From: Eubacteriales bacterium
Lineage (GTDB): Bacteria; Bacillota; Clostridia; Oscillospirales; JAAYXM01
Direction of reading: 5' to 3'
Assembly (NCBI GenBank): GCA_045586595.1
Contig: JAZNAQ010000022.1
Coordinates: 1,605-65,604, forward strand
DNA: 64,000 bases
The position numbers and the translations under genes were made by a program. The notes under the pieces are model-generated. The model was not told the origin of the DNA. It saw only the letters and a list, made by a program, of their open reading frames with translations, and did no database searches. Shown piece by piece: positions 30,067 through 58,597 of the stretch (position 1 is the stretch's first letter; every line of letters begins with the position of its first letter).

Positions 30067-30078
30067 AACCTACACTCC

Positions 30079-32436: not shown

Positions 32437-32513
32437 GGGCCTTTAGCTCAGTTGGCTAGAGCTCCCGGCTCATAACCGGATGGTCCTGGGTTCGAGTCCC
32501 CGAAGGCCCACCA
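32437..32513 (+). tRNA. tRNA with anticodon CAU (elongator Met or lysidine-type Ile2; not distinguishable by eye), CCA encoded
   Basis: Acceptor GGGCCTT/AAGGCCC, D arm GCTC-AGTTGGCTA-GAGC, anticodon loop CTCATAA, T loop TTCGAGT, then ACCA. Confidence 0.88.
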
Positions 32514-32664: not shown

Positions 32665-32702
32665 CCGCACAGGAGATCAAAATTTCCGTGCGGTATCTTC
32701 TT
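32656..32702. terminator. Hairpin terminator after the orphan tRNA 3' fragment (also abuts the stop of the convergent EAL gene)
   Basis: AAGAAGATACCGCAC...GTGCGGTATCTTCTT, a 15-bp stem. Confidence 0.6.
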
Positions 32703-34160: not shown

Positions 34161-34208
34161 AAAAACTGCAACAATAAGAAGCCCTATTACGGGCCCTTAT
34201 TATTGCAG
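34161..34208 (-). terminator. Intrinsic terminator after the GGDEF gene
   Basis: On the minus strand, a roughly 18-bp stem CTGCAATAATAAGGGCCC...GGGCTTCTTATTGTTGCAG followed by U5. Confidence 0.75.
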
Positions 34209-34327
34209 CTGGACTGGCATAGTATAAAACCTTAGCCTCTTGGCTTTGCGTCGCCGACTTTCGCCGGTTTTGCCAAATGTTCAATTTTCACCAGTTTATC
34301 ACACTAAAGCATTTTTGTCAAACACTT

Positions 34328-37481: not shown

Positions 37482-38204
37482 TTAATTATCATACCAGTAT
37501 TTTGTAAAAGCGTTCATATATTCGGTTTTCTCGTAGCAAAGAACATATTTTGATACCGCTGTGAACTCCGAACCTCTATCAGGCAGTATCTCGCGAACAC
37601 CCTGCGGAAGAAACTCCGTAAATTTCACTTCCATAACACATTTCCCCGGTTCAAGCACCGGAAGGGTCGGAAGGGTTGAATCAAATATATCAAAGCTCCC
37701 GACAGCCGCCCGAACATCCATATCAAAAGTTATTCTGACCGTACCCTCATCAGCAATCCACGGCTCACGATCATAGTCAACGGTCACCCTCGGGCGCATA
37801 ACATTAGATACACACTCAAAATAAAACTCTCTTAAGAGGGGCTTATCACTCTGAAGCAGAAAATCATAATGTCCATCTAAAATTTTATAAACTTCATCTC
37901 GTGAAAGGCTCGCCGCTTCTTTGAAAATGTAGCTTCCGTATTTTTTCTTTCGTTCTAATTTTATGCTTGAATCAGAGCAGTTGTATATGCGGATGCGGTA
38001 TTTTTTTCGTTGAAGAAAACCACCCTCTTTTTCTTCATAAGCCGTATTGTAGTAATCGTCAAAATAAAGACTTCGTATCATATATCCGCCGTTTTTCGCG
38101 TGTTTATCAAGTTCGAGATACGGTGAAAGCCTTTTGCAGATTACCTCTTTTTGTGCAGTATCAATAAGATACTTCCACTCGTTTCTGTATCTCTCAGCCT
38201 TCAT
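37482..38204 (-). CDS. VTC-domain (polyphosphate polymerase-like, CYTH-type) protein
   Basis: About 240 aa from ATG 38204 (RBS GGAGGA 6 nt upstream, inside the cotH 3' end). YRNEWKY...RSLYFD...RKKYRIRIY are typical of bacterial VTC-domain proteins. Confidence 0.72.
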   Translation of the reverse strand: MKAERYRNEWKYLIDTAQKEVICKRLSPYLELDKHAKNGGYMIRSLYFDDYYNTAYEEKEGGFLQRKKYRIRIYNCSDSSIKLERKKKYGSYIFKEAASLSRDEVYKILDGHYDFLLQSDKPLLREFYFECVSNVMRPRVTVDYDREPWIADEGTVRITFDMDVRAAVGSFDIFDSTLPTLPVLEPGKCVMEVKFTEFLPQGVREILPDRGSEFTAVSKYVLCYEKTEYMNAFTKYWYDN

Positions 38205-39960
38205 ATATATCCTCCACGACGTTGCCGCGAGCATCTATATAGAAGCACTTCGTACCGTACTTTTTAGCACCGTCAACATAATAATAGTCAAAAGCTGTCT
38301 GAGTGTATCCGCTTTTGTTTGTTGCGGTTACCTTTATGAAGTACTGCCCCTGTGGAAGCATATTTATTTCGGTGATAGGAAGTGATACATCCTGCTTGTT
38401 AAGGATGAGATTGCTGAAATTAAAGTCCCTTGCGACCTGTATATCGTATGTGATTTGCTCGGCATCAAAGTCAAACGCGCTCTGGCTTGAAATGATAAGT
38501 TTGTCACCATTCTTTCTCGGCACATCTATATAAAACGGCATAGGTTTTTCAAATGATGCCTTGTACAGTTTGTGGTTCAGTTCAATTTCCGAGGACAAAC
38601 CGTTCACAACCCTGTCATACTGCCCGGAGGTGAGCGGTATGTGGAGAATGTCAGGATAAGAATAAACATACGGTTTTACTATGGCCGCATATCTCTTTGC
38701 AATACTATCTACTTTCTCTTTTGACAGGTAGTTTGTTTTAAGGTCGCTTATTGCATCGTCAAGAGCCTTCCTAAATTTTTCGCTCTTGAGCGCTCTCTGA
38801 AACAGCACGTTACCCCAGTAGTTACTGACGCCCGTTTCCCACTCTGCATAAGAGACCCTGTTCTGCTCAGAATACTCTGTTTTATTCAGCATGCCGTCGT
38901 TATCCCATGATATAAAATACCATTTATCAAGGTTTAACGGGCTGTATATGTATACATTTCGGCTCTGCGTGTCGGCATTACCCGTAAGGATATGGAATGC
39001 CATCCAATAGCTTAGGTTCTCGATGTCGAAATGCTTGTCGAGGATCTCTTCAATAGGCTTTGAAAAATCGTTTACATCCTCAAGCATTTTAATGAGCTTT
39101 TCGTGGTTATCGTTACCTTTTGTTTCTATGAGCTCTTCAAATGCCGCCTCGTTAAATGTCGGGTCCTCCTTCATTTTTATTACATCTTCGTATCTGTAAA
39201 ACTCAAACACATTTATTTTATAAAGGTGTCCGTTTGCATCAAGGCCGTGCGCCTTCAGCGCTTTTTTGTTAAGCTGTTCAACAAAAGTATAGATGCCGTA
39301 ATCGGTAAATTCGTTGTTTCCGCCGACAGTAGTATCCTTTACATACAGATGAACAAATTTCGTACGGAGTGCCATCATCTGCGGAACTCCGGCAATAAGG
39401 TCATATGCCATCTTGTTGCGGAACCTGAGCCCCTCGTTGATGTGCTTATTCAAAGGAATAGAGGTATTCCCCATCCACATTCCTTTGTTGTCCTTAAGGC
39501 TTATCTTATAGTTTTTTACAGACTGACGGCTTGACGTCTGACCGCGGATCTGTATCGTGCAGTTTGGTGAAACCTGACCATAACCGAGTTTTCCGGGAAG
39601 CGGACCTGACTCATCGCCAATCTGCAAAAGTCCCTCAACCTTGTATCTTTCAACGCCCATATCCTCATAGTCGAATACGGAATATGTATTTATCTCGCTC
39701 CAGGTATGGTTTGTTTTTTCGCCTTCGTTGCCTCCTGAAACGGTAAGATACATTGTTACAACGTCTTCGGGTTTATCAACTGTATATAAATCCTTTTTAT
39801 CGCGGAGCTTATATTTTTCATTGTATTCCAAATCAGGCACATAAACACTCTCAGGTGCTTGGGACTCCGTTTCTTCCTCCTGCGGCAAAAAGACAGCGCA
39901 GCCCGACAAAAGGATACTCAATATAGTCAGCAAAGAGATAATTTTTAATGTGTTTTTCAT
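38194..39960 (-). CDS. CotH-family atypical kinase, predicted lipoprotein
   Basis: 588 aa with a lipobox (LLSGC-AV). CotH-like core plus a C-terminal beta-rich (Ig/FN3-like) domain. Its ATG overlaps the pelG TGA (ATGA). Confidence 0.72.
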   Translation of the reverse strand: MKNTLKIISLLTILSILLSGCAVFLPQEEETESQAPESVYVPDLEYNEKYKLRDKKDLYTVDKPEDVVTMYLTVSGGNEGEKTNHTWSEINTYSVFDYEDMGVERYKVEGLLQIGDESGPLPGKLGYGQVSPNCTIQIRGQTSSRQSVKNYKISLKDNKGMWMGNTSIPLNKHINEGLRFRNKMAYDLIAGVPQMMALRTKFVHLYVKDTTVGGNNEFTDYGIYTFVEQLNKKALKAHGLDANGHLYKINVFEFYRYEDVIKMKEDPTFNEAAFEELIETKGNDNHEKLIKMLEDVNDFSKPIEEILDKHFDIENLSYWMAFHILTGNADTQSRNVYIYSPLNLDKWYFISWDNDGMLNKTEYSEQNRVSYAEWETGVSNYWGNVLFQRALKSEKFRKALDDAISDLKTNYLSKEKVDSIAKRYAAIVKPYVYSYPDILHIPLTSGQYDRVVNGLSSEIELNHKLYKASFEKPMPFYIDVPRKNGDKLIISSQSAFDFDAEQITYDIQVARDFNFSNLILNKQDVSLPITEINMLPQGQYFIKVTATNKSGYTQTAFDYYYVDGAKKYGTKCFYIDARGNVVEDIYEG

Positions 39961-41417
39961 TTCTTATCCGCCTCCAGCTTATCTTCAAGAAATACCTTCA
40001 TTTTTCGGAACACTCCCGACTTGTCCTCATTCACAAGCGGTTGAACCGCAAGTATATAGTAAGGCAAGCGTTTTGTGAAATAATCAAGCCTTACAATCGC
40101 CGTTATCACGAAAATCATCGATGCTATTAAAAACCCGAACCCGTAATAAACCTGTGGCAAAAACAGAGATATCACGGAAAGAACAACAGAGCCTGCCGCA
40201 AAAAGCCCCGTTGCAAAAAAAGCACCTTTATAGTCGGTAAAATACAAAAGCATAAGCATCGTCATATTTCCGATGGCGTAAAGCCCGTATCCTACGCACA
40301 GAGTTCTGAAATACCCTCTCATCATTTCGTTGAACCCGAGAGGCAAAATATCAAGCAAGAATCCGCCAGCCGCTATGAACAGCGCTGTACACAAAAGCTG
40401 TTTTATTGCAGTATAGAGCATTTCTGTTTTCAGTGTATCAAGCATTTCTTTTTCTGCCTGAAGAATATCTTTTACAGTGCCCTTATCGTTGTATAGGCTA
40501 TAATGATTTCTATACTTCCCATAAAAATTAACCTCAACCGATACAACAAAGTTTACGGTTGTGATAAGCGTAGTCATAAAAGCAAGAAGTGCAGGAACAT
40601 CGTGTTCCGGAGCACCGTAGAAAAGCCCTTGCACCTTTATGCCTATATCAGAAAACCACATTATCACAAGGTGCGAAAACATTCCGATATTCACAAAAAA
40701 ACCCGACAGTGCAAGATACAAATATTCATCTACCCATTCAAGGAAAACAAATGCGCCGACATCTGATTTTGGAAAATATTTGTGAAGAAGTACTAAATTC
40801 CATATGACCATAACGCCATATCCTACTGTTATGGAAAGAAGAAGCATTTCTATTACATATGTTTTAAAAGCAAACGTCAAAACAAAACCGAGAACAAATA
40901 TCACAAGTATCGCAACAAAATACGAAAGAAAGATTCCTCTATAATCCTTTATGGCTGTGAGATAGCTCATGGCATTCCATACTACTATCATCTCGTTGAA
41001 GAATATAAACATAAGCGCACAGCATAAAAGGTTTGCGCCCGAGAATGCAAGAAACGCCGTCCACAGTACGCTTCCAATTGTCATCATGAGCGCACTGCTT
41101 CCCCAGAACGACGGAAGCACTGCACTCTTTTTTTCTTCATAGAGCATATCTGCGGTAAATCTGGTTATTGTCATTGAGAAGAAGGACGTAACAATAATTG
41201 ACGCGAGTAGCGTATAGGTTATCATGCATATAAGAAGTTCTCTCGACTGGGTTTCTATCCCTGCCCTTTTGCACAAAAACATTATGCCGAGCAACAGAAT
41301 AACACCAAGAAGCATTGGTCCTGAACAAATAACTGTAGCATAACCGTATGCCTTAGCCGAATTGAGTATTCCCTTTTTTTGAAAGAGCTTCTTAAGTTCA
41401 AACCCTATGCCTGCCAA
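39957..41417 (-). CDS. pelG: Pel exopolysaccharide export/polymerisation membrane protein PelG
   Basis: 486 aa, about 12 TM helices. The MAGIGFELKKL N-terminus is characteristic of PelG. Confidence 0.8.
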   Translation of the reverse strand: MAGIGFELKKLFQKKGILNSAKAYGYATVICSGPMLLGVILLLGIMFLCKRAGIETQSRELLICMITYTLLASIIVTSFFSMTITRFTADMLYEEKKSAVLPSFWGSSALMMTIGSVLWTAFLAFSGANLLCCALMFIFFNEMIVVWNAMSYLTAIKDYRGIFLSYFVAILVIFVLGFVLTFAFKTYVIEMLLLSITVGYGVMVIWNLVLLHKYFPKSDVGAFVFLEWVDEYLYLALSGFFVNIGMFSHLVIMWFSDIGIKVQGLFYGAPEHDVPALLAFMTTLITTVNFVVSVEVNFYGKYRNHYSLYNDKGTVKDILQAEKEMLDTLKTEMLYTAIKQLLCTALFIAAGGFLLDILPLGFNEMMRGYFRTLCVGYGLYAIGNMTMLMLLYFTDYKGAFFATGLFAAGSVVLSVISLFLPQVYYGFGFLIASMIFVITAIVRLDYFTKRLPYYILAVQPLVNEDKSGVFRKMKVFLEDKLEADKK

Positions 41418-42835
41418 CCTTCTTCTACCTCCTTGTAAAGATTTCTGTATTTGCCAAGCATTATCGCATATCGGTAATACTCATATGCTCTCTTTTTGGC
41501 AATTTCTCCCATTTTGAGTCTCAACTGTCTCGACTCACACATAACTTCCATTCGGTCAGCGAGCTTTTCTCTCTGCATAGGCGGAACGCAATATCCCGCT
41601 ACACCGAAAGTGTCTTCAGGGCTTCCTTCCAGTAGTTCCCTGCAACAACCGACATCGGTGGTTACGCACGGCCTTCCTGCGGCAAACGACTCGAGCACAG
41701 ACAGCGGCTGACCTTCAGAAATACTCGTAAGTATTGTAAAGTCAAGCTTTTCAAAATATTTGACAACATCAACTCTTCCCGGCATTATGACCTTGTCATC
41801 TATACCCAGCTGTGTAATCAGATCTCTGCATTCTGCCGCATATTCCTCGTCGTCCACGCCACCCATTATGTGCAATCTGACGTTATCCATTCGGGTAGAC
41901 AGCTCAAAAAAGGAATAGATCATCGTTTTGATATCCTTGATCGGCGCAAATCTGACAACTGCCCCGATATCAACATATCCGTCATCTTCTTTTAGCGGTA
42001 TGTCGCAGAATCGCTCATAGCTTATGCCGTTTTCTATAACATAGCATTTAGTCTCATCACAGCCCATTTCCACCTGCGTTGCCTTGGCACGCGTAAAAAG
42101 TGATGTAACACGAAACGCACGGCCATATATAAGGTCAGAAAGCATATAAAAGAATTTAACCCACTGACCTTTAAATGCCTTCTCAACCCATTTTGCTCTT
42201 ATTATTTCCTCTTCTCTTTCTCGGGTATATATGCCGTGTTCGGTCAAGAGAACAGGTTTTTTCTTGGCATATCCGCCAAGGCTTGCGAGCAACCCGCCGT
42301 ACCCGGTTGAAATAGCGTGATAGCAGTCCGCCTCAGGCACCTCTGCGCCCATAAGATACAAAACGGGCAAAAGTCTTGAGCGCACCGAATGGAACGCATC
42401 TGAAAAAGCGGTGTATGGAAACTCCGCTTTACATATTTCTATGAGAGTTTTCAAAAAGTGTTCACTCTTCAAATAGCTCATCGGGTTTATTTTCTTTGTA
42501 TGGTACATATTAAAGAGCAAATCCCAGTCGGGTTTGTCAGAAAAAACGAGTCGTCTGAGAGCCTCGTTTTCCTTTTCTGAAAAGGTATGGTTAAATACCT
42601 TGTTAGGTTTAACCTTCAGGGCATCATCAAGAAATACCTGACGCACTTCCACAACATTTTCGGGAAGCTTATATGCAAACTTGTCCTTATCCTCGGATTT
42701 TGCGCCGATAACCCAAAGAACAAATTCGTGTTCGGGCATCTCCGTTATATATTGGTGTGCCCAGGTGGACACGCCGCCGTTTATAAAAGGGTAACACCCT
42801 TCAAGAACCATACAAATTCTCATCGTTTTCACCAA
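41405..42835 (-). CDS. pelF: Pel glycosyltransferase PelF (GT4)
   Basis: 476 aa. EGCYPFINGGVSTW at the N-terminus and the GT4 E-x7-E region (SISEGQPLSVLESFAAGRP). Confidence 0.8.
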   Translation of the reverse strand: MVKTMRICMVLEGCYPFINGGVSTWAHQYITEMPEHEFVLWVIGAKSEDKDKFAYKLPENVVEVRQVFLDDALKVKPNKVFNHTFSEKENEALRRLVFSDKPDWDLLFNMYHTKKINPMSYLKSEHFLKTLIEICKAEFPYTAFSDAFHSVRSRLLPVLYLMGAEVPEADCYHAISTGYGGLLASLGGYAKKKPVLLTEHGIYTREREEEIIRAKWVEKAFKGQWVKFFYMLSDLIYGRAFRVTSLFTRAKATQVEMGCDETKCYVIENGISYERFCDIPLKEDDGYVDIGAVVRFAPIKDIKTMIYSFFELSTRMDNVRLHIMGGVDDEEYAAECRDLITQLGIDDKVIMPGRVDVVKYFEKLDFTILTSISEGQPLSVLESFAAGRPCVTTDVGCCRELLEGSPEDTFGVAGYCVPPMQREKLADRMEVMCESRQLRLKMGEIAKKRAYEYYRYAIMLGKYRNLYKEVEEGWQA

Positions 42836-42838
42836 ACA

Positions 42839-44689
42839 CTACTTCAGATTAATTGTTACCGTTTCTTCTTCCGCACAGAGCAGATATAAGTTTCCCGTAA
42901 GATGAGAAAAACTTCCGCCTTCTACGCTTTCATATTCACCTTCATTGAAGCGGACAAAGAAGTATCCCTCATCATAAAAATTGCCGATTTTAAGCACGAG
43001 TTTGTCTTCTGTGTGCTCCTTTTCTACAGTAATTGCCGCATATCTCTGCACCGCCGCAGAAGTTTCAGAGCCTGTGAAGTTTCTGATTGTCGGCGCCGAT
43101 GTGTAGAGATAGTTTAGATATTTATCAAAGCTTACAGAAAGACTTCTCCAACCCTTTTCCGCCCCTCGCTCTGGGTCAAGCGCATCGTCAGGGTGTGTAA
43201 AGTGGCTGTTTACAAAGTGCATATTAAGCTCAGACACAAGTGCAAGCTCCATAAACGGGGTAAGCTCGCAGCTTGATATAATTCGCGGCTGATACACTCT
43301 GCCGTCGGGCAGAACGTCAAACTCCTGTGTACATCCGAATTTAAAATCGCCGTCCGGGAAATATATCCCCGATATCGTCTTTATGTGTGGATATGTACTG
43401 AACAAAAACTCTTCGCCAACCTTGGACATAATGTTTGATGGCGGAACATATAGCGACACATCAACACCGGGAAAAAGCCTTTCGCAAAGGTCTACAAGCG
43501 AGTCAAACGCACTTTTCATTGCCCACTTACTTTCCCACGTTTTATAGTCGTACAGATCTCCATAATCACATTCGCTCATACAGAGAGGCTGATGGTTATA
43601 TCCGTGGTATCCAACCTCGCCGCCCTGTCGGAGAAGCATATTTCCAAAGTTCAAAAACGTGCCCTCGTCAGGCTCTGACGGGGTTGTTCCGTCAACATTG
43701 TCATCATATCCCGTAATCGCAAGTCCCGTGTATTTTATACCGTACTTATCTGCGAAGTCCATCATTGCAGGCCACCAGATGTTGACGTAAAAATCTCTTG
43801 TTGTCGCCCCGAAATCACGCATTATATACTCATTACTGCCCTGCGGAATCTGCGACGGAAAGTCGTCGAGATAGAAGGTTGATGCATTTATAACCGGATA
43901 AACGGATATATCATCGAGCAAGCTGAAGGATGCAGCATAGAATCCGCGCGTAACCTTTTCACAAAGGCCTAAGTTATTTACAACAAACTTACCTTCTCCG
44001 TGTTTTGTTTCCCATATAAGCGGGGTGCGGCTTTCATTGTCAATCCATGCATGAACTTTCGCTCTCTGTTCATCAAGTCGAACCTCCCAAACTGAATCGT
44101 ATCCGTCCTCAACAACAAAGCCTCTGCCGCCACCAACCATAAATCCATCTTCAATATATATGCTTTCAAGATGTGCATTTTCCCACGATGCTTCCATGAT
44201 ACCGAGTGAGCTTTCAAGCACAGATACATATATATCTCTCTGAAGTGTAAGCGCAAACAAAACTTTTCCGCCAGCATACACCCAATCACTCAGGCTAATA
44301 ATATTTTCTCCTATCGGAGACAAACTGCCCAAGAGAATGACTACCTTATCATACTTTGACAAGTCCGGAAATGCACATTTTGACAAATCAGCGATGTCAT
44401 ATCCCACTTTCATATCCGACAGGATTAGAGGAAATTCATCAAGGGCTTCTTTGCTTTCAGGCTGACTCGTGTCGCACAGAACAAGTGTGTTTTTGGCAAG
44501 CGTCTCATTTGCCTGCCTCTTGGTAACAATATTCGAAGTTTCTAAAAGCTGAAGGTCGGGCTTGTTATAATTATATTGAATTCCGCTTCGCTCAACAAAA
44601 AGAACTACTGCCATAAGCGCAAACATCAAGATAACTACAAGCATGCCGTTATATCTGAATTTTAAAAATCTTTCTTTCAATCTTTCCAA
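42839..44689 (-). CDS. PelA-like polysaccharide deacetylase-type protein (DUF2194-like), membrane anchored
   Basis: 616 aa with an N-terminal TM helix and CE4-like motifs (YLDDFP, GYHGYNH). It sits between pelE-like and pelF, as in Gram-positive pel operons. Confidence 0.5.
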   Translation of the reverse strand: MERLKERFLKFRYNGMLVVILMFALMAVVLFVERSGIQYNYNKPDLQLLETSNIVTKRQANETLAKNTLVLCDTSQPESKEALDEFPLILSDMKVGYDIADLSKCAFPDLSKYDKVVILLGSLSPIGENIISLSDWVYAGGKVLFALTLQRDIYVSVLESSLGIMEASWENAHLESIYIEDGFMVGGGRGFVVEDGYDSVWEVRLDEQRAKVHAWIDNESRTPLIWETKHGEGKFVVNNLGLCEKVTRGFYAASFSLLDDISVYPVINASTFYLDDFPSQIPQGSNEYIMRDFGATTRDFYVNIWWPAMMDFADKYGIKYTGLAITGYDDNVDGTTPSEPDEGTFLNFGNMLLRQGGEVGYHGYNHQPLCMSECDYGDLYDYKTWESKWAMKSAFDSLVDLCERLFPGVDVSLYVPPSNIMSKVGEEFLFSTYPHIKTISGIYFPDGDFKFGCTQEFDVLPDGRVYQPRIISSCELTPFMELALVSELNMHFVNSHFTHPDDALDPERGAEKGWRSLSVSFDKYLNYLYTSAPTIRNFTGSETSAAVQRYAAITVEKEHTEDKLVLKIGNFYDEGYFFVRFNEGEYESVEGGSFSHLTGNLYLLCAEEETVTINLK

Positions 44690-45564
44690 AATGCTATAGC
44701 CTCCTTCACTCGTCTGGAAACAAACATTTTCTTGGACTGTATGTCAGAAATAAGCGCTTTTATTTTATCGGCCTGCTTAAGCTGAGAATAGTATTTAAGC
44801 TTAAGCAAAATGATTTCTTCATAATCTCCGTATCGCTCATCTGCCTCTGCAAGTATCTTGCCTGCAATACTGTAATTCCCAAGTGCAAACTCATTTTCGA
44901 AGTAATGCATGTAGTCTTCAAATGTTTTTACGTATCCAAGCTTTTTTGAAATGAGCTGCGAATATAGGTTTCTGTTCATAACCTCAACCTGACCGGAGAG
45001 AAGCTTCTGCTCAAGCACCTCCCATAAAAAGTCGCAGTAGCTGGAAAGAACATTGATATCATCGGGGTTTTCTTCATATTGCTTGCTGAATCTTTGAAGG
45101 GCTTCATCGTTTTCATTTGAGATTTCAACCATTGCCGTAACAGCATAATGAACAACCTCAGGGTCCTCGTTGTTTCCCGCTTTTTGCAGAAATTCAACAT
45201 ATTCCGCCGGATTATCGTTAAGAACATCCATTATTATCTCGCGGCGGACTTTGGGGGAGTTTATAATAAGAGCTTCTTCGATTGCCACAAGCGAGTCATC
45301 GTTTTTCTTTTCTTCAACTGCTATACCCTTGTAAAGTGCAGAATCAAGTTTCATCTTCTGCACCCCTACCGCTATCGTGTCGTCTTTTTCAAACACTACC
45401 TGGAAATGAAGAAACATAACCGCCATAAATCCCCAGAAAGGAAGGCATAGCACCACAAAAAACATATATTTATGGACTTTTAGAAACTTAAACCGAGTAC
45501 CAAGGAACGTAAAAATGCATAAAAGGATATGTATGAAAATCAAAACAGCAGCCAAATAATTCAT
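44677..45564 (-). CDS. PelE-like membrane-anchored helical-repeat protein
   Basis: 295 aa with 2 N-terminal TM helices and a TPR-like helical region. Assignment rests mainly on position between pelD and the pelA-like gene. Confidence 0.45.
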   Translation of the reverse strand: MNYLAAVLIFIHILLCIFTFLGTRFKFLKVHKYMFFVVLCLPFWGFMAVMFLHFQVVFEKDDTIAVGVQKMKLDSALYKGIAVEEKKNDDSLVAIEEALIINSPKVRREIIMDVLNDNPAEYVEFLQKAGNNEDPEVVHYAVTAMVEISNENDEALQRFSKQYEENPDDINVLSSYCDFLWEVLEQKLLSGQVEVMNRNLYSQLISKKLGYVKTFEDYMHYFENEFALGNYSIAGKILAEADERYGDYEEIILLKLKYYSQLKQADKIKALISDIQSKKMFVSRRVKEAIAFWKD

Positions 45565-45578
45565 ACATACCCCTCCTT

Positions 45579-48359
45579 TTATCTTATATTTATTTCTATA
45601 TCAAGACCTTCAAACCTTGGCAGAATATACTGCAAATCGCTCTTGGTCGCTTGCGACAAAAGAATCCCGAGCTTCCCGTCTTCAACCTCGCCCTGAATAT
45701 CATTTGCGCGGATTTTGCCGGCCAGCATCGCATCGACTTCCTGATATGAGTGCCCTTTTGCATCAACTTCTATAAACTCGTATGTAAACACTTTTCGCTC
45801 TGCCATACTCTTGAAGTTTGTGTGAATCTTATCAAACTCTTCTCTGTTCAGAATATGAGTATCTCGTATGTACTGACTTTCATATAAATGCTGGTTATAG
45901 TCATACGCTCTGAGAAGTGATATCTCAACGAGATCGCGCAGTATCTTAAACAGGTTTACATAGTAAAGCGAATTCTGCTCCGGCTTCACATGCCATATAA
46001 AGATCAAAAGCTCAAGCTTTTCTCGTCGCCACACGCCTGCCGCATACATTGGCAAATTCGGCAGAAATTCTGTATTTCTCCAGATTTCGTCCTTTTTAAT
46101 CTTGTCAAGAATCGGCTTGTATGTATCAAGAGATATCGATCTTGAAACCTCGCTCAATATATCTCTTGACGCTACCTCAAGCCTCCCGAACGCGCTCTTT
46201 TCGTTTATTGAATACACGCTCAGGCACTTGTTTTCAAGTGTATCCTCGAATGTATCCATAATCTTGAGGTAAAGCCTGTGCGGTTCAACTGTATCCAATT
46301 GTCTCGTAACATCAAATATTTTGCCAAAGCTGTCTTTTGAACCTATAATCTGCTTCTTAAGATCACGCTTTTCACCGAATGTATCCTGATAAAGTTCACG
46401 CGTAAACTCAAGCTTTTCTTCGAGAAGACCAATCTGTTCATTCCCGAATTTTATTTTATCATCCTTGGCAAGACGGATATATCCCGAAACCGCTCCAACG
46501 AGAAAGTAATAAACAAACGCAAACCAGTTTGACGGCTCGTAGAATATGGTAAGCCAGCTTGTTCCGGAAAGAACCTTTGCAACAAACCAAGCAACCGACG
46601 AAAGACCTGCCGCCATAAGTCCCGAATAAAGGCCGTGAACAGTTGCAACTATCACAATAAACGCCATTCTGAAATCAACGATCGCAAAAATTACCGACGA
46701 ACCTGTTGCCAAATTCAAAAGCTCTGTTACAATGAACATAAGCGCAATCTCTACGGCCTTTATGACAGGAGTATGCTCGCTCATCCATTTTTTTACTTTG
46801 CTCCTAAAGTCTGTGGCTTTGATGTTTTTTGCAACAAGATAGTTTTCATATTCCTCTTCAAGGTCATCTATAATTGATATTCTTGAAAACCAACCGTATT
46901 CGTTCCGAAGGGCAGTGTTTTTCATTTCCAGTAGCGCGCCTTCATCTTCGCCTGTAAACTTAACATAAAGGCCAGGCCAAAAGCCAGAGATTCGTTTCAT
47001 TACATCTCCAAATGTAATGTTGAACTCATCCCCTACATTAAGAGTTCCTACTCCCTCCTGCCAGTTCTCGATGAAACGAGCAACCAAAACCGAAACATCG
47101 TGCATCGAAATAAAGATTGCTCTTGAGCCTTCAATCTCCTTTAATGTAACAATTCCCGTTTCCATTTCTGAGAAAATGCCATTCAAAAAGTCGCCCTCAA
47201 GTATTCCGCTGTATAGATGAGGAATTCTCACTATCTTTATGTCAACACCAAAATGCTTCGTGTAAAATTCACACAAATTTTCCTTTGACAGTGTAATTAC
47301 ACTTATATCCTTTTTATTTGAGTACGCACCGTCAAGGGATGAGAAATATATAACTTTTGCGCCTTTCTGATATTTCGCAGTGTAGCTTAAAACTTCTCTC
47401 AGTTTTTCTGTGTCAGGCTCTGCTTTCGAGCGATATGTAAGCTCTCTTGCAAAAAAAAGCACAATGTCAAAATCGTATGTTTCAAATATTCTTTCATAAG
47501 GAATTTGTTTTCCGTTATACACCTTAACTCTGCCCTTGGATTTGAGATGTGTTTCACCGGCAATAATGATGTTGTTGTTCTCAAAAGTGTCTTCAATAAA
47601 TTTTTCCGTAATGTATCCGGTGTTTCCTATGAGCAGGATTCGTTTTGTTACAAGTGTGTTCGGTTCTGTAACGATTCTGTTTTTATTGGCAAGCTGCTCT
47701 CTTATTTCCAAAAGGTCGTTGTTGTTGACAACGTTAAGCAAGCACTCAACAAGAAAATCATCAAACACGCCACTCATGCCGTTCGCAATCATTTCTATTG
47801 CAACATCCTGTGAGAAAGCGTCTTTATAGCTTCTTGTGCTTGTGAGTGCATCAAAAGAGTCCGCTATCGAAACAACGCGCGCAGAGATGGGAATTTCTTC
47901 ACCTCTTAAGCCGTTGGGATATCCTGTTCCGTCTATTCTCTCGTGGTGGTATTTTGCAATATCCTTTGCATGTTTTATGATTTGCTCATCAATGCCCGAT
48001 GATATTTCATCAATCATCTCATGCCCTAAAACAGTGTGCTTTTTGACTATATCATACTCTATCGGAGAAAGCTTTCCCGGAAAATTAAGGATACTTTCAG
48101 GTATTCTACTCTTTCCTATATCATGAAGCGAGGATGCTATGGATATAAATCTTATGTCTTCTTCTGACAATGAGTACTTATCCGTTACGTTATTAAGCTC
48201 ACGAAGCATAAGCTCAGTGAGCATTCTGACGTGATAAATATGAAATCCCGCTTCACCGTTTAACATCTCAGGTATATTATCACTTGAAATATCAACTACT
48301 TCGAGATGTTTTTCGTCAGTTTCAGTATTCAGCACAAGAAGAGATTTTACTGATGCCAT
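45579..48359 (-). CDS. pelD: PelD-like c-di-GMP receptor fused to N-terminal HD-GYP and SDR/epimerase-like domains
   Basis: 926 aa. HD-GYP (HDIGK...HHERIDGTGYPNGL), then Rossmann LLIGNTGYIT, then 4 TM helices, then a GAF-like domain. The C-terminal degenerate GGDEF has an intact I-site (RAND, five residues, then EDGKL in place of GGDEF). Confidence 0.6.
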   Translation of the reverse strand: MASVKSLLVLNTETDEKHLEVVDISSDNIPEMLNGEAGFHIYHVRMLTELMLRELNNVTDKYSLSEEDIRFISIASSLHDIGKSRIPESILNFPGKLSPIEYDIVKKHTVLGHEMIDEISSGIDEQIIKHAKDIAKYHHERIDGTGYPNGLRGEEIPISARVVSIADSFDALTSTRSYKDAFSQDVAIEMIANGMSGVFDDFLVECLLNVVNNNDLLEIREQLANKNRIVTEPNTLVTKRILLIGNTGYITEKFIEDTFENNNIIIAGETHLKSKGRVKVYNGKQIPYERIFETYDFDIVLFFARELTYRSKAEPDTEKLREVLSYTAKYQKGAKVIYFSSLDGAYSNKKDISVITLSKENLCEFYTKHFGVDIKIVRIPHLYSGILEGDFLNGIFSEMETGIVTLKEIEGSRAIFISMHDVSVLVARFIENWQEGVGTLNVGDEFNITFGDVMKRISGFWPGLYVKFTGEDEGALLEMKNTALRNEYGWFSRISIIDDLEEEYENYLVAKNIKATDFRSKVKKWMSEHTPVIKAVEIALMFIVTELLNLATGSSVIFAIVDFRMAFIVIVATVHGLYSGLMAAGLSSVAWFVAKVLSGTSWLTIFYEPSNWFAFVYYFLVGAVSGYIRLAKDDKIKFGNEQIGLLEEKLEFTRELYQDTFGEKRDLKKQIIGSKDSFGKIFDVTRQLDTVEPHRLYLKIMDTFEDTLENKCLSVYSINEKSAFGRLEVASRDILSEVSRSISLDTYKPILDKIKKDEIWRNTEFLPNLPMYAAGVWRREKLELLIFIWHVKPEQNSLYYVNLFKILRDLVEISLLRAYDYNQHLYESQYIRDTHILNREEFDKIHTNFKSMAERKVFTYEFIEVDAKGHSYQEVDAMLAGKIRANDIQGEVEDGKLGILLSQATKSDLQYILPRFEGLDIEINIR

Positions 48360-48711
48360 AAAATTTCATCCTCCTTTCACAAAAGTAAAATAATTATATT
48401 TTCGCATTTTAAATTTCATTCTTATTTTATTATATAGCATTATACGCCTTTTTTCAACATTTAAAGTGTATTTGAAAGCAGGCACCTCTGTGAATAATAT
48501 TGCACAAAATATATAAGCGTGAAACAAGGCACTTCTTTTTAGCGGGAAAGCCTTAATTTGTTGGTATATACACTTAAACTTAATTTTAAAACAGCGATTT
48601 TTAGATGTTCGGCGCCTGTTTCATCGGTTTTATCGGCACTTTTCTTTATTTACAAATTTTCTGTTTCATGTTATTATAAAGATATAATTCGACAATAAGG
48701 AGGCCGAGTTT

Positions 48712-49203
48712 ATGGCTTTTTGTACTAAATGCGGAGTCGAGCTCAAAGACGGTTCAAGCTTTTGTCATGCTTGCGGAACTAAAGTCGGAGGCGACGCGCC
48801 TAAATATGACTTTTCCTCATATGTAAATCAATTTACAGGCACAACGGACACAACGGATAAATACGACCCGATAGATATTGCTCAGAACAAAGCAGTCAGC
48901 GTAATCGCATATATATCATGGCTCGTGCTTATCCCTCTTCTCAAAGCAAAAAACTCGCCATTTGCGCGTTTCCACACAAATCAGGGCTTGGTATTATGGC
49001 TTCTGAGCATTGGCTGGAGCGTTGCGCAAGCGGTTATTTCTTTTGTCTTACTCTCAATTTCACATTATCTCAAACCCGTTGTATCACTTCTCAGCCTTAT
49101 GGACATTGTATTTATCGTGCTTATGGTTATAGGAATAGTCAATGCCGCCCAAGGCAAGGCAAAAGAACTCCCTATTATCGGGAAAATAAAGCTTATAAAG
49201 TAG
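48712..49203 (+). CDS. Zinc-ribbon + DUF4870-like membrane protein
   Basis: 163 aa with an N-terminal CTKCG...CHACG ribbon, then a 3-TM region with HTNQGL. Confidence 0.55.
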   Translation: MAFCTKCGVELKDGSSFCHACGTKVGGDAPKYDFSSYVNQFTGTTDTTDKYDPIDIAQNKAVSVIAYISWLVLIPLLKAKNSPFARFHTNQGLVLWLLSIGWSVAQAVISFVLLSISHYLKPVVSLLSLMDIVFIVLMVIGIVNAAQGKAKELPIIGKIKLIK

Positions 49204-53588: not shown

Positions 53589-55877
53589 TCACAGCTTATT
53601 TCTCTGAATCTTTCCGCTTACTGTCTTGGGCAGCTCGTCACGGAATACGACGAGGCGCGGATATTTATACGGAGCTGTATGCTCTTTAACATAGTTCTGA
53701 ATCTCTTTCTTGAGTTCTTCTGTAGGCTCTGTGCCCTTTGTAAGAACGATACTTGCCTTTACTATCTGGCCGCGAACCTCATCAGGTGCTGCAGAAACGC
53801 CACACTCAAGGACGTACGGAAGCTCCATGATAACGCTTTCAATCTCAAACGGCCCGATGCGGTAGCCGGATGACTTGATAACGTCATCAACACGGCCGAC
53901 ATACCAATAGAAGCCGTCCTCATCACGCCATGCGGTATCTCCTGTGTGATAGTATCCGTCGTGGAGAACCTCAAGAGTTTTTTCCTCGTCGCGGTAGTAC
54001 TCAACAAAGAGGCCGCAGGGCTTGCCGTTCTTTACGTTAATTACGATTTCGCCGGTCTCACCGACAGCTACGGGCTCGCCTTTGTCATTTACAAGCTCAA
54101 CATTGTATATCGGAGCAGGCTTACCCATAGAACCAATTTTGTGCGGAGCACCTATCATGTTACCGATAATCATTGTGCTCTCTGTCTGGCCAAAGCCCTC
54201 AATTATCTGAAGGCCTGTTGCCTTTTCAAATTGCTTATAGACCTCGGGGTTTAAAGCCTCGCCCGCTGTTGACATATGCTTGACAGACGAGAAGTCATAC
54301 TGCGAAATATCTTCTTTAACAAGCATACGAAGCATTGTAGGCGGTGCGCAGAAGGTCGTGATGTTATGACGCGCAAACATCGGAAGAATTTCTTTCGCAT
54401 CAAAGCGGTCAAAGTCATAAACGAATATTGCCGCCTCGCAAAGCCACTGGCCGTAGAGCTTACCCCACATAGACTTTGCCCAGCCTGTATCTGAAATTGT
54501 GAAGTGTAGCCCATCAGGGTCAACATTGTGCCAATACTTTGCTGTATGGAAGTGACCGAGCGGATATTTATGGTTGTGTGCCGCAATCTTCGGGTATCCG
54601 GTAGTGCCGGATGTAAAGAACATCAGAAGCAAATCATCGCCGCACGGTGAATCATCGTTTCTTTCAAAGTGTGAGCTGTATAGCGGGTACTCGTCAGCAA
54701 AGCTTCTCCAACCCTCACGCTCGCCACCGACTATAATCTTATGTATAAGCTCAGGGCAGGTCTTTGCCGCCTCATCTACCTGTGCGGTACACTCTCCGTC
54801 TGCCGTGCAGAGGATTGTGTTTACGCCCGCCGCCTGAAAACGATACTCAAAGTCATGAACCTGAAGCTGGTTTGTGGCGGGGATAGCGATTGCGCCGAGC
54901 TTATTAAGACCAATCATAGCATACCAGAATTCGTAATGACGCTTCAGTACGAGCATAACTCTGTCGCCTTTTTTGATACCGAGTGACTTAAAGTAGTTTG
55001 CGCATCTTGCTGATTCACGCTTTACATCCTCAAAAGTAATGCGGCGTTCTACTTTATTCTTGTCGATATGAAGCATCGCAAGCTTATCAGGCTCGCGTTC
55101 TGCCAAAGCATCTACAAGGTCGAAAGCAAAGTTAAAGTTTTCGGTGTTTTTAAACTCAATCTTTGTAGGTGTTCCCTTTTCGTTCTCTTCAACAGAAATA
55201 TACTTACGGTAAATTCTGTCCTTAGTGTCACGCTTGACCTCGCGGGGATCGTCGATAGCTTTTATCGGAGTAAGCTCAGGAATGGGCTCACCTGACGGAT
55301 TCAAAACGATTGCATAGAAAACACAATCACGACCGTTTACGGCAATCATACCGTGTGGGGTATTACTGTCAAAGTAAATGCTGTCACCCGCGCGGAGAAC
55401 CTCGCGGTGCTCGCCTATCTGAACCATAAGCTCGCCCTCAACGACTATGTCACACTCCTGACCATCGTGAGTGGTAAGCTCAATATCGCGGTTTTGCGCG
55501 CTCTCATCATAAGCACATCTGACGTAGAGCGGCTCTGCGATTCTGTTCTGAAAAGCATATGCAAGGTTATAATATGTCATGCCATGAGCATTTGCTATTT
55601 CCTGCCCCAAACCGTTTCTTGTAACCGTAAACGATTTAAGAGTAGGGCTGTAGCCCTCAATAATATCTGTTACGTTAACACGCAATGCAAGCGCGCAACG
55701 GTAAAGGAATGCAAAGTTAAGGTCTTGCTTGCCTTCTTCACACAAAATATACTCTTCAACCGAAACATCGGTCTTTTCGGCCATCTCTGCCGGGGTCAAC
55801 CCCTCAATCTCACGAAGTTCGCGTATACGAGATGCCATCTCTTGAATTTTGTAGTCAAGTCCTGATATAGGTTGCAT
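53589..55877 (-). CDS. XRE-HTH + cupin + medium/short-chain acyl-CoA synthetase (AMP-forming) fusion, paralog 1 (behind the Val T-box)
   Basis: 762 aa from ATG 55877 (MQPISG..., RBS GAAAGGATGG). HTH (LTPAEMAEKTDVSVEEY), cupin (GDSIYFDSNTPHGMIA), then AMP-binding motifs FTSGTTGYPK, YHTGDTAWRDEDGFYWYVGRVDDVIKSSGYRIGPFEIE and SGKIQR. Confidence 0.85.
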   Translation of the reverse strand: MQPISGLDYKIQEMASRIRELREIEGLTPAEMAEKTDVSVEEYILCEEGKQDLNFAFLYRCALALRVNVTDIIEGYSPTLKSFTVTRNGLGQEIANAHGMTYYNLAYAFQNRIAEPLYVRCAYDESAQNRDIELTTHDGQECDIVVEGELMVQIGEHREVLRAGDSIYFDSNTPHGMIAVNGRDCVFYAIVLNPSGEPIPELTPIKAIDDPREVKRDTKDRIYRKYISVEENEKGTPTKIEFKNTENFNFAFDLVDALAEREPDKLAMLHIDKNKVERRITFEDVKRESARCANYFKSLGIKKGDRVMLVLKRHYEFWYAMIGLNKLGAIAIPATNQLQVHDFEYRFQAAGVNTILCTADGECTAQVDEAAKTCPELIHKIIVGGEREGWRSFADEYPLYSSHFERNDDSPCGDDLLLMFFTSGTTGYPKIAAHNHKYPLGHFHTAKYWHNVDPDGLHFTISDTGWAKSMWGKLYGQWLCEAAIFVYDFDRFDAKEILPMFARHNITTFCAPPTMLRMLVKEDISQYDFSSVKHMSTAGEALNPEVYKQFEKATGLQIIEGFGQTESTMIIGNMIGAPHKIGSMGKPAPIYNVELVNDKGEPVAVGETGEIVINVKNGKPCGLFVEYYRDEEKTLEVLHDGYYHTGDTAWRDEDGFYWYVGRVDDVIKSSGYRIGPFEIESVIMELPYVLECGVSAAPDEVRGQIVKASIVLTKGTEPTEELKKEIQNYVKEHTAPYKYPRLVVFRDELPKTVSGKIQRNKL

Positions 55878-55905
55878 AATAAGCCATCCTTTCACGGAAC
55901 GAATT

Positions 55906-56191
55906 AAAAAGCACTCGTCCCAAAGCTGATAATCTTTGAGACGAGTGTCAGAATTTCTAATACACCCGCGGTACCACTCAAATTGCGCTTTACGCGCCAC
56001 TCAGACTCAAACAAGCCGTATGCATTTACGCAGCAGTCACGGAAAGGTTCTACTCGCCTTATATAAGACTTTCTTCCTCTCAGCTCAGAAGCTACAGACA
56101 CAAGTAACAATGCCGATAGTTCACACCCACCACTATCTCTCTGAAGGACTGTACACTCACGCTCTCTTCGTCAACGCCTTTATATTCATTT
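55906..56191 (-). promoter_or_regulatory. T-box riboswitch, specifier GUA (Val)
   Basis: Promoter TTGACA (56226-56221), 17 nt spacer, TATAAT (56203-56198). Stem I has the GA motif UUGACGAAG, AGAGAG bulge and a GGUG distal loop. Specifier loop GUCU-GUA-G-CUUC (codon at plus 56093-56095). CCGUGA F-box. T-box UUUGAGUGGUACCGCGGG (55965-55984). Terminator CACUCGUC...GACGAGUG plus U5 (55906-55947). Confidence 0.85.
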
Positions 56192-56278: not shown

Positions 56279-58546
56279 TCAAAGTTTATTCCTCTGAATT
56301 TTACCGCTTATTGTCTTGGGGAGTTCATCACGGAATACAACAAGGCGCGGGTATTTATACGGCGCTGTATGCTCCTTGACGTAGTTCTGGATTTCTTTCT
56401 TAAGCTCTTCCGTCGGCTCCGTCCCCTTTGTAAGAACAATGCTTGCCTTTACAATCTGACCGCGGAGCTCATCGGGAGCTGCAGAAACGCCGCACTCGAG
56501 AACATACGGAAGCTCCATAATGACACTCTCAATCTCACACGGCCCGATGCGGTAACCGGATGATTTGATAACATCGTCAATTCGGCTGACATACCAGAAA
56601 TAGCCGTCCTCATCACGCCATGCGGTATCTTCTGTGTGGTACATTCCGCCACGCATACACTCTTCCATTTTTTCTTCATCATCAAGATACTGTCTGAAGA
56701 GGCCAACAGGAGTTCCGTTATCAAGGCGTACAACAATTTCACCGACCTCACCATTTGCAACCGGGTTGCCGTCGAGGTCAACAATATCAATATCATACTG
56801 CGGAGATGCCTTGCCCATTGCGCCTACGCGCGGAGTCGTACCATAGAGGTTTGCGATAACAAGGGTTGTTTCTGTTTGGCCGAAGCCCTCCATTATCTTA
56901 AGGCCTGTTGCCTTTTCAAATTGCTTATACACTTCGGGGTTGAGTGCCTCTCCTGCTGTTGTCATATGGTGGATGGAGGAAAGGTCGTATTTTGAAAGGT
57001 CTTCTTTTATGAACATACGAAGCATTGTTGGCGGCGCGCAGAAGGTTGTGATGTTGTATTTTGCAAACATCGGGAGAATTTCGTTTGCAGAAAAGCGGTC
57101 AAAGTCGTAAACGAATACTGCCCCCTCGCAGAGCCATTGGCCATAGAGCTTACCCCAGAGGGATTTGCCCCAGCCTGTGTCAGAGATTGTAAAGTGGAGC
57201 CCATCACGCTCGCAGCAGTGCCAGTATTTTGCAGTCACAAAGTGACCAAGGCCGTATGTGTGCTTATGCTCGACCATTTTCGGGTTACCTGTTGTTCCCG
57301 ACGAGAAGAACATAAGAGCCGCCTCATCGCCGCAGGGGGTATCATCGCTTCTGTCAAAGTGGCTTGAGAACATTGCATATTCGCTGTCAAAATCATGCCA
57401 GCCATCGCGATGACCGCCGACAAGTACAAGAGTTTTTACACTCGGGCATTTCTTTGCTGCAGCCTCTGCGATTGTAGCCGTATCATCATCAGCGGTGCAG
57501 ACAACAGCCTTTACGTTTGCCGCCTCATAGCGGTATACAAAGTCGTGGTCCTTAAGCTGATGTGTTGCAGGGATTGCAACAGCACCGAGCTTATGAAGCG
57601 CAACCATCGCAAACCAGAACTGATAATGGCGCTTGAGAACAAGCATTACGCGGTCACCCTGACCGATGCCGAGTGACTTGAAATAGTTTGCACATCGTGC
57701 CGATTCTTTTCTTATATCATCAAATGTAAAGCGGCGCTCAACCATGTTCTTGTCAACATGGAGCATCGCAAGCTTATCGGGAGTTTTCTTTGCAATTTCG
57801 TCGACAACATCGAAGCCGAAGTTGAATGTATCAGTATTCATAAACTCGATTTTTTCGAGTACGCCCGGCTCGCTCTCTGTACATTTTACAAACTTCTCAC
57901 ACGCGAGCTTTGTTGCCGGACGAAGAGATACAACGCTCTCGCGCACTTCTTCTTCCTTTGCATCCTCTCCAGGGAGAACTACTGCACAGAATACGCAGTC
58001 TTCACCGTTTACAGCTATCATACCGTGCGGTGTGGAGCTGTTATAGTAGATGCTGTCACCCTCGCTTAAAACTTCGGTGTGAGTGCCGACCTGAACCTTG
58101 AGCGAGCCCTTGAGAACGAGGTCAAACTCCTGCCCGCTATGCTTTGTAAGGTGTATCGGCTTATTCTGCTGCTCCTCAGAGTATTCATATCTTACCCAAT
58201 AGGGCTCAGCTATTTTGTTTTTAAACTTCGGGGCAAGGTTTGAAATGCTGATACCCTCCTCTTTAGCCGTCTCCTGCCCCTTGCCCTTACGAGTTACGGT
58301 GTAAGAGGAAAGATGCGCCGTGCGGCCCTCCAAAAGTTCTGTAAGCTCAATACCAAAGGCAAGCGCGCATTTGTGAAGAAACGAGAACGGCATATCCGCC
58401 GCACCGTTTTCGAACTTTTTGTATTCATCAAGTGTTACTTCGGTTTTCTCTGCCATCTGGTTTGCAGTCATACCCATAACCTCACGCATCTCACGGATGC
58501 GGGCTGCAACCTCGCCGAGTTGTGTCATAGTTTTTTCTGTGCTCAT
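56279..58546 (-). CDS. XRE-HTH + cupin + acyl-CoA synthetase (AMP-forming) fusion, paralog 2 (behind the Ile T-box)
   Basis: 755 aa from ATG 58546 (MSTEKT..., RBS AAAGGAG). Same architecture as paralog 1, with the C-terminal ~85 aa nearly identical. Confidence 0.85.
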   Translation of the reverse strand: MSTEKTMTQLGEVAARIREMREVMGMTANQMAEKTEVTLDEYKKFENGAADMPFSFLHKCALAFGIELTELLEGRTAHLSSYTVTRKGKGQETAKEEGISISNLAPKFKNKIAEPYWVRYEYSEEQQNKPIHLTKHSGQEFDLVLKGSLKVQVGTHTEVLSEGDSIYYNSSTPHGMIAVNGEDCVFCAVVLPGEDAKEEEVRESVVSLRPATKLACEKFVKCTESEPGVLEKIEFMNTDTFNFGFDVVDEIAKKTPDKLAMLHVDKNMVERRFTFDDIRKESARCANYFKSLGIGQGDRVMLVLKRHYQFWFAMVALHKLGAVAIPATHQLKDHDFVYRYEAANVKAVVCTADDDTATIAEAAAKKCPSVKTLVLVGGHRDGWHDFDSEYAMFSSHFDRSDDTPCGDEAALMFFSSGTTGNPKMVEHKHTYGLGHFVTAKYWHCCERDGLHFTISDTGWGKSLWGKLYGQWLCEGAVFVYDFDRFSANEILPMFAKYNITTFCAPPTMLRMFIKEDLSKYDLSSIHHMTTAGEALNPEVYKQFEKATGLKIMEGFGQTETTLVIANLYGTTPRVGAMGKASPQYDIDIVDLDGNPVANGEVGEIVVRLDNGTPVGLFRQYLDDEEKMEECMRGGMYHTEDTAWRDEDGYFWYVSRIDDVIKSSGYRIGPCEIESVIMELPYVLECGVSAAPDELRGQIVKASIVLTKGTEPTEELKKEIQNYVKEHTAPYKYPRLVVFRDELPKTISGKIQRNKL

Positions 58547-58597
58547 TGCATTTTCTCCTTTCAAATTAAAAACCTTAAAATTTTTAATTGAATAACA

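Follow-up and report, generated by a model that had tools for sequence, protein, structure and literature searches.

How can a receptor for a second messenger share one polypeptide chain with a domain of the kind that destroys the same messenger? This question is raised by a gene in a 64,000-nucleotide (nt) stretch of DNA from a Eubacteriales bacterium (assembly GCA_045586595.1, contig JAZNAQ010000022.1; the whole stretch is referred to here as the window). The list of open reading frames (ORFs) and their translations give, on the minus strand at positions 45579-48359, one unbroken ORF of 926 codons, for which an original prediction, made from the DNA letters, proposed a PelD receptor of c-di-GMP (cyclic dimeric guanosine monophosphate) fused to an HD-GYP phosphodiesterase (PDE) domain. 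The architecture is very probably that of a PelD bearing an intact-looking HD-GYP domain. The fuller reading, in which the PelD of a Gram-positive Pel synthase has acquired an N-terminal, catalytically competent c-di-GMP PDE, is favoured on balance, a judgement that blends those reached below for its parts.

The predicted series of HD-GYP, SDR (short-chain dehydrogenase/reductase)-like, four transmembrane (TM), GAF-like and degenerate GGDEF parts is upheld by Pfam, profile comparison, hydropathy, AlphaFold and Foldseek, and the motifs quoted in its favour are all located (HDIGK at residues 79-83, HHERIDGTGYP at 138-148, GNTGYIT at 245-251 and RAND at 884-887). The HD-GYP domain does stand at the N terminus; its extent is corrected from the N-terminal ~190 residues to approximately residues 33-215. 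The full-length AlphaFold model has a mean predicted local distance difference test (pLDDT) value of 76. The parts of the protein are as follows.

45579-48359, minus strand: HD-GYP-PelD, 926 residues, in the order HD-GYP, SDR-like, four TM helices, GAF, degenerate GGDEF
47715-48263, minus strand: HD-GYP domain, residues 33-215 (Pfam, Protein Data Bank (PDB) sequence matches and fold matches)
47646-47714, minus strand: poorly conserved linker that joins the HD-GYP domain to the SDR-like domain, residues 216-238 (38% mean pairwise identity; pLDDT below 50 at residues 222-234)
46830-47645, minus strand: degenerate SDR/epimerase-like Rossmann domain, residues 239-510 (profile and fold matches)
46464-46778, minus strand: membrane region with four TM helices at residues ~530-552, 556-575, 577-597 and 609-632 (hydropathy and AlphaFold)
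46290-46463, minus strand: long juxtamembrane helix, residues 633-690, with the family-specific motif KKQIIGSKDSFGKIF (model and alignment)
45864-46289, minus strand: GAF-like domain, residues ~691-832 (AlphaFold and Foldseek)
45582-45863, minus strand: degenerate GGDEF domain, residues ~833-926 (Foldseek and motifs)

The scan with domain models that had been proposed as a check recovers the HD-GYP domain through the Pfam families HD_5 (E=1.2e-26) and HD (E=3e-15). Results of a phmmer search of PDB sequences show that its closest solved relative is PmGH (4mcw; E=3.4e-35), the active, tri-iron GAF-HD-GYP protein of Persephonella marina, with PA4781, V-cGAP3 and DvhD ranking behind. In Foldseek the HD-GYP part of the AlphaFold model superposes on 4mcw with a root mean square deviation of 2.6-3.0 Å and 39-41% identity over ~190 residues. 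The residue equivalences below combine the phmmer alignment to PmGH with the residue roles stated in the PmGH paper.

Eight metal ligands: E185, H189, H221, D222, H250, H276, H277 and D305 in PmGH; E36, H40, H79, D80, H108, H138, H139 and D167 here
Metal-centre stabiliser: K225 in PmGH; K83 here
Structural residue: D308 in PmGH; D170 here
GYP motif: G284-Y285-P286 in PmGH; G146-Y147-P148 here
GYP-loop closing residue: I294 in PmGH; I156 here
Guanine contacts: R314 and K317 in PmGH; R176 and K179 here
Putative catalytic residue: D183 in PmGH; N34 here (differs)
Partner of D308: R192 in PmGH; H43 here (differs)

The two proteins thus agree in the metal ligands, K225, GYP, I294, D308, R314 and K317, and differ at D183 and R192. 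The HD-GYP signature HHExxDGxGYPxxxxxxxI is found complete (H138-H139-E140-R-I-D143-G-T-G146-Y147-P148 and I156), the HD pair being H79-D80. Conservation was assessed over 76 sequences, the window protein and 75 species-level homologues, in which the metal ligands, K83, GYP, I156, D170, R176 and K179 are invariant save for one D167Y and four D170E substitutions; Y147 (PmGH Y285), R176 and K179 are unchanged in every one. An apparent loss of E36/H40 in nine ORFs of 878-882 residues is ruled out, the real starts of these genes being GTG or TTG codons. The domain had been described as apparently intact, with inspection of its metal ligands suggested as a check; all eight PmGH ligands are present and conserved across the alignment, and the motif residues are not degenerate. 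Within the clade of fused proteins, the HD-GYP domain has a mean pairwise identity of 66%, higher than the SDR-like domain (51%), the GGDEF domain (53%) and the linker (38%). The HD-GYP domain is thereby conserved on a par with the TM and GAF parts and above the SDR-like and GGDEF domains, which indicates that it is under purifying selection. Judged from sequence and predicted fold, it has every feature of active HD-GYP PDEs except the equivalent of D183. Its placement is unusual: HD-GYP domains are mostly C-terminal output domains (HD-GYP architecture census), whereas the one described here is N-terminal and followed by further domains.

At the other end of the chain, the C-terminal module shows the hallmarks of the c-di-GMP-binding part of PelD, with the following sites.

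45699-45710, minus strand: I-site R884-A-N-D887 (motif)
45669-45683, minus strand: EDGKL, residues 893-897, at the GGDEF active-site position (motif)
45615-45617, minus strand: second arginine, R915 (spacing from R884)

Residues 636-926 were also modelled separately with AlphaFold (mean pLDDT 75, rising to 82-91 across the last ~100 residues), and Foldseek matched the model to GAF-GGDEF proteins. The Pseudomonas aeruginosa PelD structures 4dn0, 4etz, 4dmz, 4eu0 and 4etx align over their full length with E values of 1e-6 to 1e-4, and the low TM-scores are accounted for by a different orientation of the two domains relative to each other. As originally described, the degenerate GGDEF domain carries RAND, then five residues, then EDGKL, the canonical spacing between RxxD and the GGDEF position. 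From R884 to R915 the distance is 31 residues; the corresponding pairs are 32 residues apart in Bacillus cereus PelD (R363/R395) and 35 in that of P. aeruginosa (R367/R402). R884, D887 and R915 are unchanged in all aligned sequences. In B. cereus PelD, R363, D366 and R395 are all required for c-di-GMP binding and biofilm formation (PMC7112168), and the I-site R367/D370 together with R402 is needed for c-di-GMP binding by P. aeruginosa PelD. In the model, the C-terminal module retains this PelD I-site (R884xxD887 and R915) and is consequently predicted to be able to bind c-di-GMP.

Purely sequence-based searches return little for this region. Residues 513-926 match no Pfam family at E≤10 save for a chance-level Rce1-like hit (E=9.8), and the SDR-like and C-terminal parts scanned alone against Pfam at the same threshold give nothing useful. 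A profile of the C-terminal 291 residues finds zero matches among PDB sequences, and its hhalign comparison with the GGDEF domain encoded in the window is not significant (probability 0.2%). The GGDEF and PelD assignments accordingly depend on predicted fold and motif spacing. With P. aeruginosa PelD (4dn0, 4dmz, 4etz) the protein shares TM helices that precede cytoplasmic GAF and degenerate GGDEF domains, the RxxD motif and the second arginine; it differs in showing only ~12-15% identity with no sequence-level match, and in its SDR-like and HD-GYP domains, which P. aeruginosa PelD does not have. The closer counterpart is the extended PelD of clostridia, streptococci and actinobacteria (PMC7112168), whose SDR-TM-GAF-GGDEF layout had been named correctly in the original prediction as the Gram-positive form. 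The likeness covers the operon, its accessory genes, the degenerate epimerase-like domain, four TM helices, GAF and degenerate GGDEF domains and the RxxD motif with its arginine, and the difference is the ~225-residue N-terminal HD-GYP region, which the published form does not carry. Homology of the PelD part to Gram-positive PelDs of ~700 residues is strong; none of these is the characterised protein.

The identity of the gene as pelD is borne out by what follows it directly downstream on the same strand, where genes overlap or are separated by a few bases.

44677-45564, minus strand: pelE-like gene, TM and tetratricopeptide repeats, 295 residues (domain scan and synteny)
42839-44689, minus strand: deacetylase-type pelA, DUF2194, 616 residues (E=3e-145)
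41405-42835, minus strand: glycosyltransferase gene pelF (NF038011, the NCBIfam PelF equivalog; score 315 bits, cut-off 100)
39957-41417, minus strand: pelG (PF16933, E=4e-132)
38194-39960, minus strand: cotH, packed tightly after pelG
37482-38234, minus strand: VTC/polyphosphate-polymerase-like gene (domain scan)
36796-37467, minus strand: DUF4956 gene (domain scan)

This arrangement matches the pelDEA(DA)FG operon with its set of cotH, polyphosphate polymerase and DUF4956 genes known from clostridia and streptococci (Whitfield et al. 2020, PMC7112168), which places the 926-codon ORF at the pelD position, as the gene that opens the operon. Scanning GTDB species genomes with peptide patterns specific to the C-terminal part of this PelD yielded 80 related loci, 76 of them with a complete gene, and the order pelD-E-A-F-G-cotH-VTC is held in every one whose contig is long enough. 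Beyond the operon lie further c-di-GMP elements.

34328-36628, minus strand: GGDEF membrane protein, 766 residues, intact motif RMGGDEF, 167 nt downstream of the last operon gene
34201-34284, minus strand: c-di-GMP-I riboswitch (RF01051, 62.5 bits), directly upstream of the EAL gene
32702-34096, minus strand: gene for a PDE with degenerate GGDEF and EAL domains (domain scan)

The 766-residue protein has FYGH at the RxxD I-site position and is for this reason probably a cyclase without product inhibition; its homologues occur near the pel operon in just nine of the 80 loci. The riboswitch is preceded by a promoter-like site (TTGACA-17-TAAACT) and followed directly by a terminator-like hairpin (34196-34179; unit 34179-34321, minus strand), an arrangement that suggests c-di-GMP-dependent control of the c-di-GMP-degrading EAL enzyme. 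With genes for a likely GGDEF cyclase and an EAL protein beside the operon, together with a c-di-GMP-I riboswitch, the pel locus appears embedded in c-di-GMP signalling, and its host to make use of this messenger. Some 5 kb past this block, at 29077-31248 on the minus strand, are a GalE-type UDP (uridine diphosphate)-glucose/N-acetylgalactosamine 4-epimerase gene (Epimerase E=1e-57, GGAGYIG intact) and a galactokinase-like gene. This GalE is a possible source of Pel precursors, as pel loci frequently have a linked galE gene (PMC7112168).

Does the N-terminal domain act on the ligand of the receptor to which it is joined? Hydrolysis of c-di-GMP is the HD-GYP domain's likely activity, and several observations weigh against this reading of the protein. 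HD-GYP domains that look intact may show little or no activity towards c-di-GMP in vitro, and some favour 5'-phosphoguanylyl-guanosine (pGpG), as PA4781 does, or 3'3'-cyclic GMP-AMP (cGAMP), as the V-cGAPs do; enzymes of the pGpG type (PA4781) and the cGAMP type (V-cGAP) are both among the PDB matches of the domain. The position of PmGH D183, whose alanine mutant is inactive (PmGH paper), is an invariant asparagine (N34) in HD-GYP-PelDs, and that of R192 is a histidine (H43). On the receptor side, no sequence-only method tied the C terminus to GGDEF domains or to a characterised PelD, and the I-site call combines motif spacing with a moderately confident model. Joined to the very receptor of its substrate, a PDE could also abolish signalling unless regulated.

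The first of two unlikely alternatives for the function of the domain is that it forms a second c-di-GMP site that hydrolyses the ligand very slowly or not at all, making the protein a two-site receptor with coincidence detection or a wider response range. The substitution of PmGH D183 by asparagine would suit this proposal, and a precedent exists in the one characterised receptor-type HD-GYP protein, DvhD of Desulfovibrio vulgaris (dCache-PAS-HD-GYP, 9rbz), which is among the fold matches and binds c-di-GMP with no hydrolysis. DvhD resembles the window protein in having an HD-GYP domain inside a membrane-bound c-di-GMP receptor that steers a biofilm output. However, in DvhD the HD-GYP domain is itself the receptor and has shed its ligands (SQ replaces HD, and MN replaces HH), whereas the window protein has intact ligands and a separate I-site domain. 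The HD and HH pairs are invariant in HD-GYP-PelDs, which are for this reason not placed in the receptor-only class of DvhD, and retention of all eight ligands and K83 across the 76 sequences is hard to account for without metal-dependent chemistry. The same comparison disfavours the degenerate second binding site that the original prediction had offered as its own alternative.

The second, equally unlikely, is that the domain is active on pGpG or 3'3'-cGAMP, or that its GYP loop contacts a GGDEF domain, either the degenerate one of its own chain or that of the adjacent cyclase, in the manner of RpfG. PA4781 and the cGAMP-specific V-cGAP3 are indeed among its nearest solved relatives, RpfG binds GGDEF proteins in a GYP-dependent way (summarised in the PmGH paper), and a GGDEF cyclase is encoded adjacent to the pel operon. 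Yet the nearest solved relative of all is the c-di-GMP hydrolase PmGH, whose guanine-contacting R314 and K317 are kept, the fused receptor module and the nearby riboswitch are c-di-GMP-specific, and there is no sign of cGAMP signalling within the window.

The distribution of the fusion bears on whether it is real and on how it arose. A full-length search of ~5.8 billion proteins gave 650 matches, the best 120 of which are all full-length (918-969 residues), 54-100% identical and equipped with HD_5. Among the 76 complete pelD genes from GTDB species genomes, 75 carry the HD-GYP domain, the sole unfused one being a Blautia PelD of 705 residues that is 43% identical (locus L080). The nearest GTDB species locus (L001), from a metagenome-assembled genome (MAG) labelled 'Eubacteriales bacterium', shows 90% identity in the C-terminal part. 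Most hosts of the fusion are MAGs from the guts of ruminants and birds, with the labels Clostridia, Eubacteriales, Oscillospiraceae, Acutalibacteraceae, Ruminococcaceae or Candidatus Flemingiibacterium, and the cultured ones include Angelakisella massiliensis and Pseudoflavonifractor phocaeensis (isolate genomes). That a mis-assembly or sequencing error merged an HD-GYP gene with pelD, the refuting outcome named in the original prediction, can be dismissed with near certainty: nothing speaks in its favour beyond two family proteins that look broken (P0121 without HD-GYP, P0125 without TM helices), and against it stand the recurrence of the ~926-residue architecture in at least 120 clusters from independent assemblies, the fusion of 75 of the 76 complete genes across GTDB species, two isolate genomes among them, and an unfused Blautia relative with no upstream HD-GYP gene.

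The PelD part alone (residues 226-926), searched against 1.84 billion cluster representatives, has 1034 relatives in total and 342 with E<1e-30. Of the 150 best-matching representatives, nearly all are ~700 residues long and begin at the SDR-like domain; within these 150, the ~226-residue N-terminal extension is found only in the representative of the fused cluster and in one partial sequence. When the PelD part is placed in a neighbour-joining tree, every sequence that bears an HD-GYP domain falls into a single clade among the unfused Gram-positive PelDs of ~700 residues. The fusion therefore had one origin, inside the extended Gram-positive PelD family, and was then kept. The only member of this clade without the domain is P0121 (714 residues); its N terminus starts inside the linker, and it may be a clipped gene call or have lost the domain secondarily. 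The Blautia locus shows no sign of a split-gene ancestor in which an HD-GYP gene would stand just upstream of an unfused pelD: the upstream genes there are trmB-like and V-ATPase-like.

Two variants of the fused protein were observed in addition. P0125 (736 residues) has the HD-GYP and SDR-like domains and is missing the TM region, which may be a real loss or a broken gene call or assembly. The HD-GYP-PelDs of Allofournierella, Angelakisella massiliensis, Ruthenibacterium and Pseudoflavonifractor phocaeensis (loci L070, L072, L073 and L074) are 1008-1029 residues long and end in a Pro/Ala/Lys-rich low-complexity tail of ~80-100 codons, which the window protein does not have.

Between the two c-di-GMP modules lie the SDR-like domain and the membrane region. 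A family profile of the SDR region matches the UDP-N-acetylglucosamine (UDP-GlcNAc) 4-epimerase 3m2p (E=1.4e-5), and Foldseek matches the fold to many extended-SDR sugar-nucleotide epimerases and dehydratases, including UDP-GlcNAc and UDP-glucuronic acid 4-epimerases; 6wj9 and 6zla are among the matched structures. The glycine motif reads GNTGYIT rather than GxxGxxG and aligns with GGAGYIG of the GalE encoded in the window, although in hmmsearch the profile aligned with that GalE over the strand of the glycine motif alone. The middle glycine is G, A, E or Q among homologues, and the domain appears by eye to have no YxxxK. Epimerase-like domains of clostridial PelDs are probably inactive (PMC7112168), and the degenerate glycine motif agrees with this view. 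Further along the chain, both flanks of the four TM helices are rich in lysine and arginine, which points to a cytoplasmic location of both protein ends. With four TM helices between the two halves, the HD-GYP domain is expected on the same cytoplasmic side as the receptor.

A mechanism can be proposed on this basis. Like its counterparts in P. aeruginosa and B. cereus, the C-terminal module would bind c-di-GMP and license Pel polymerization by PelE, PelF and PelG, and the HD-GYP domain would degrade c-di-GMP beside the receptor site. Such a local sink would keep the synthase on only under sustained or locally high c-di-GMP production, and may thereby raise the activation threshold, shield the synthase against the global c-di-GMP pool and stop Pel synthesis promptly once the cyclase halts. 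A threshold or reset role of this kind in Pel control is conceivable, and somewhat less probable than not. Candidate gates of the PDE are occupancy of the I-site, the degenerate SDR-like domain and partner proteins; more speculatively, the SDR-like domain might couple PDE activity to the state of the receptor or to a nucleotide-sugar ligand. A bolder and doubtful extension makes PelD a ligand-consuming receptor, in which the tethered HD-GYP domain, gated by the I-site or by an SDR-bound nucleotide-sugar, would let Pel track the flux of c-di-GMP rather than its concentration. Were this so, Pel synthesis would time itself out or halt as precursors run low, and the protein would represent a hard-wired, covalent case of local c-di-GMP signalling at a polysaccharide synthase.

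How one diffusible messenger gives rise to specific outputs is a central open question in c-di-GMP signalling, and the answer of local signalling has so far been inferred mostly from non-covalent enzyme-effector complexes. Examples of local modules are the E. coli cellulose synthase with DgcC/PdeK, LapD-GcbC, and GGDEF-EAL proteins in which degenerate domains have a regulatory part; fusions that combine domains for c-di-GMP turnover with domains for sensing it are generally common. The window protein resembles such modules and composite proteins in having a degrading activity near a specific effector and HD-GYP, GAF and GGDEF domains in one chain. It differs from them in that their PDE and effector are separate, or their GGDEF domain is enzymatic, whereas here the predicted PDE and the receptor subunit of a polysaccharide synthase share one covalent chain. 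A natural and conserved fusion with an apparently active PDE would allow clean and genetically tractable tests of local c-di-GMP signalling: point mutants of the HD motif and of RxxD would separate both activities in one protein. If the domain is indeed catalytic, the Pel matrix switch may destroy its own signal.

The fusion is conserved and apparently has no prior description. A full-text search of the available library found no paper linking PelD with an HD-GYP fusion, the HD-GYP architecture census does not mention PelD, and a review of c-di-GMP receptor evolution does not describe the combination. The Gram-positive Pel paper and its supplements (PMC7112168) report no HD-GYP domain on PelD; its survey sampled Butyrivibrio, Clostridium botulinum and similar taxa, with no Oscillospiraceae. 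Many gut Oscillospiraceae and Acutalibacteraceae, with ruminants, birds and humans as sources, carry the fusion, and at least two cultured species are among its hosts. Public records name these proteins merely 'HD domain-containing protein/phosphohydrolase', labels so generic that the Pel system and its regulator are invisible in the annotations of the genomes that bear them.

Start signals of the operon and the genes around it complete the description of the locus. An AGGAGG Shine-Dalgarno sequence stands ~8 nt 5' of the ATG at 48359, and a candidate promoter precedes it.

48429-48457, minus strand: promoter-like site TTGAAA-17-TATAAT, ~70 nt upstream of the pel operon (consensus match only)

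The 5' region of the operon has no riboswitch or other known RNA at Rfam gathering thresholds. A divergent gene at 48712-49203 (plus strand), encoding a zinc-ribbon and TIC20-like membrane protein of 163 residues, has a 352-nt intergenic region in common with the pel operon promoter. Elsewhere in the window, a T-box leader (107 bits; 62857-63117, minus strand) lies upstream of a 462-residue gene at 61386-62774, and tRNA genes are found at 32437-32510 and 9774-9846 (both plus strand). Two tandem paralogues at 53589-56000 and 56279-58564 (both minus strand) combine helix-turn-helix, cupin and AMP-dependent (acyl-CoA) synthetase-like parts; their last ~70 residues are near-identical and the remainder has diverged, which suggests recent gene conversion or partial duplication.

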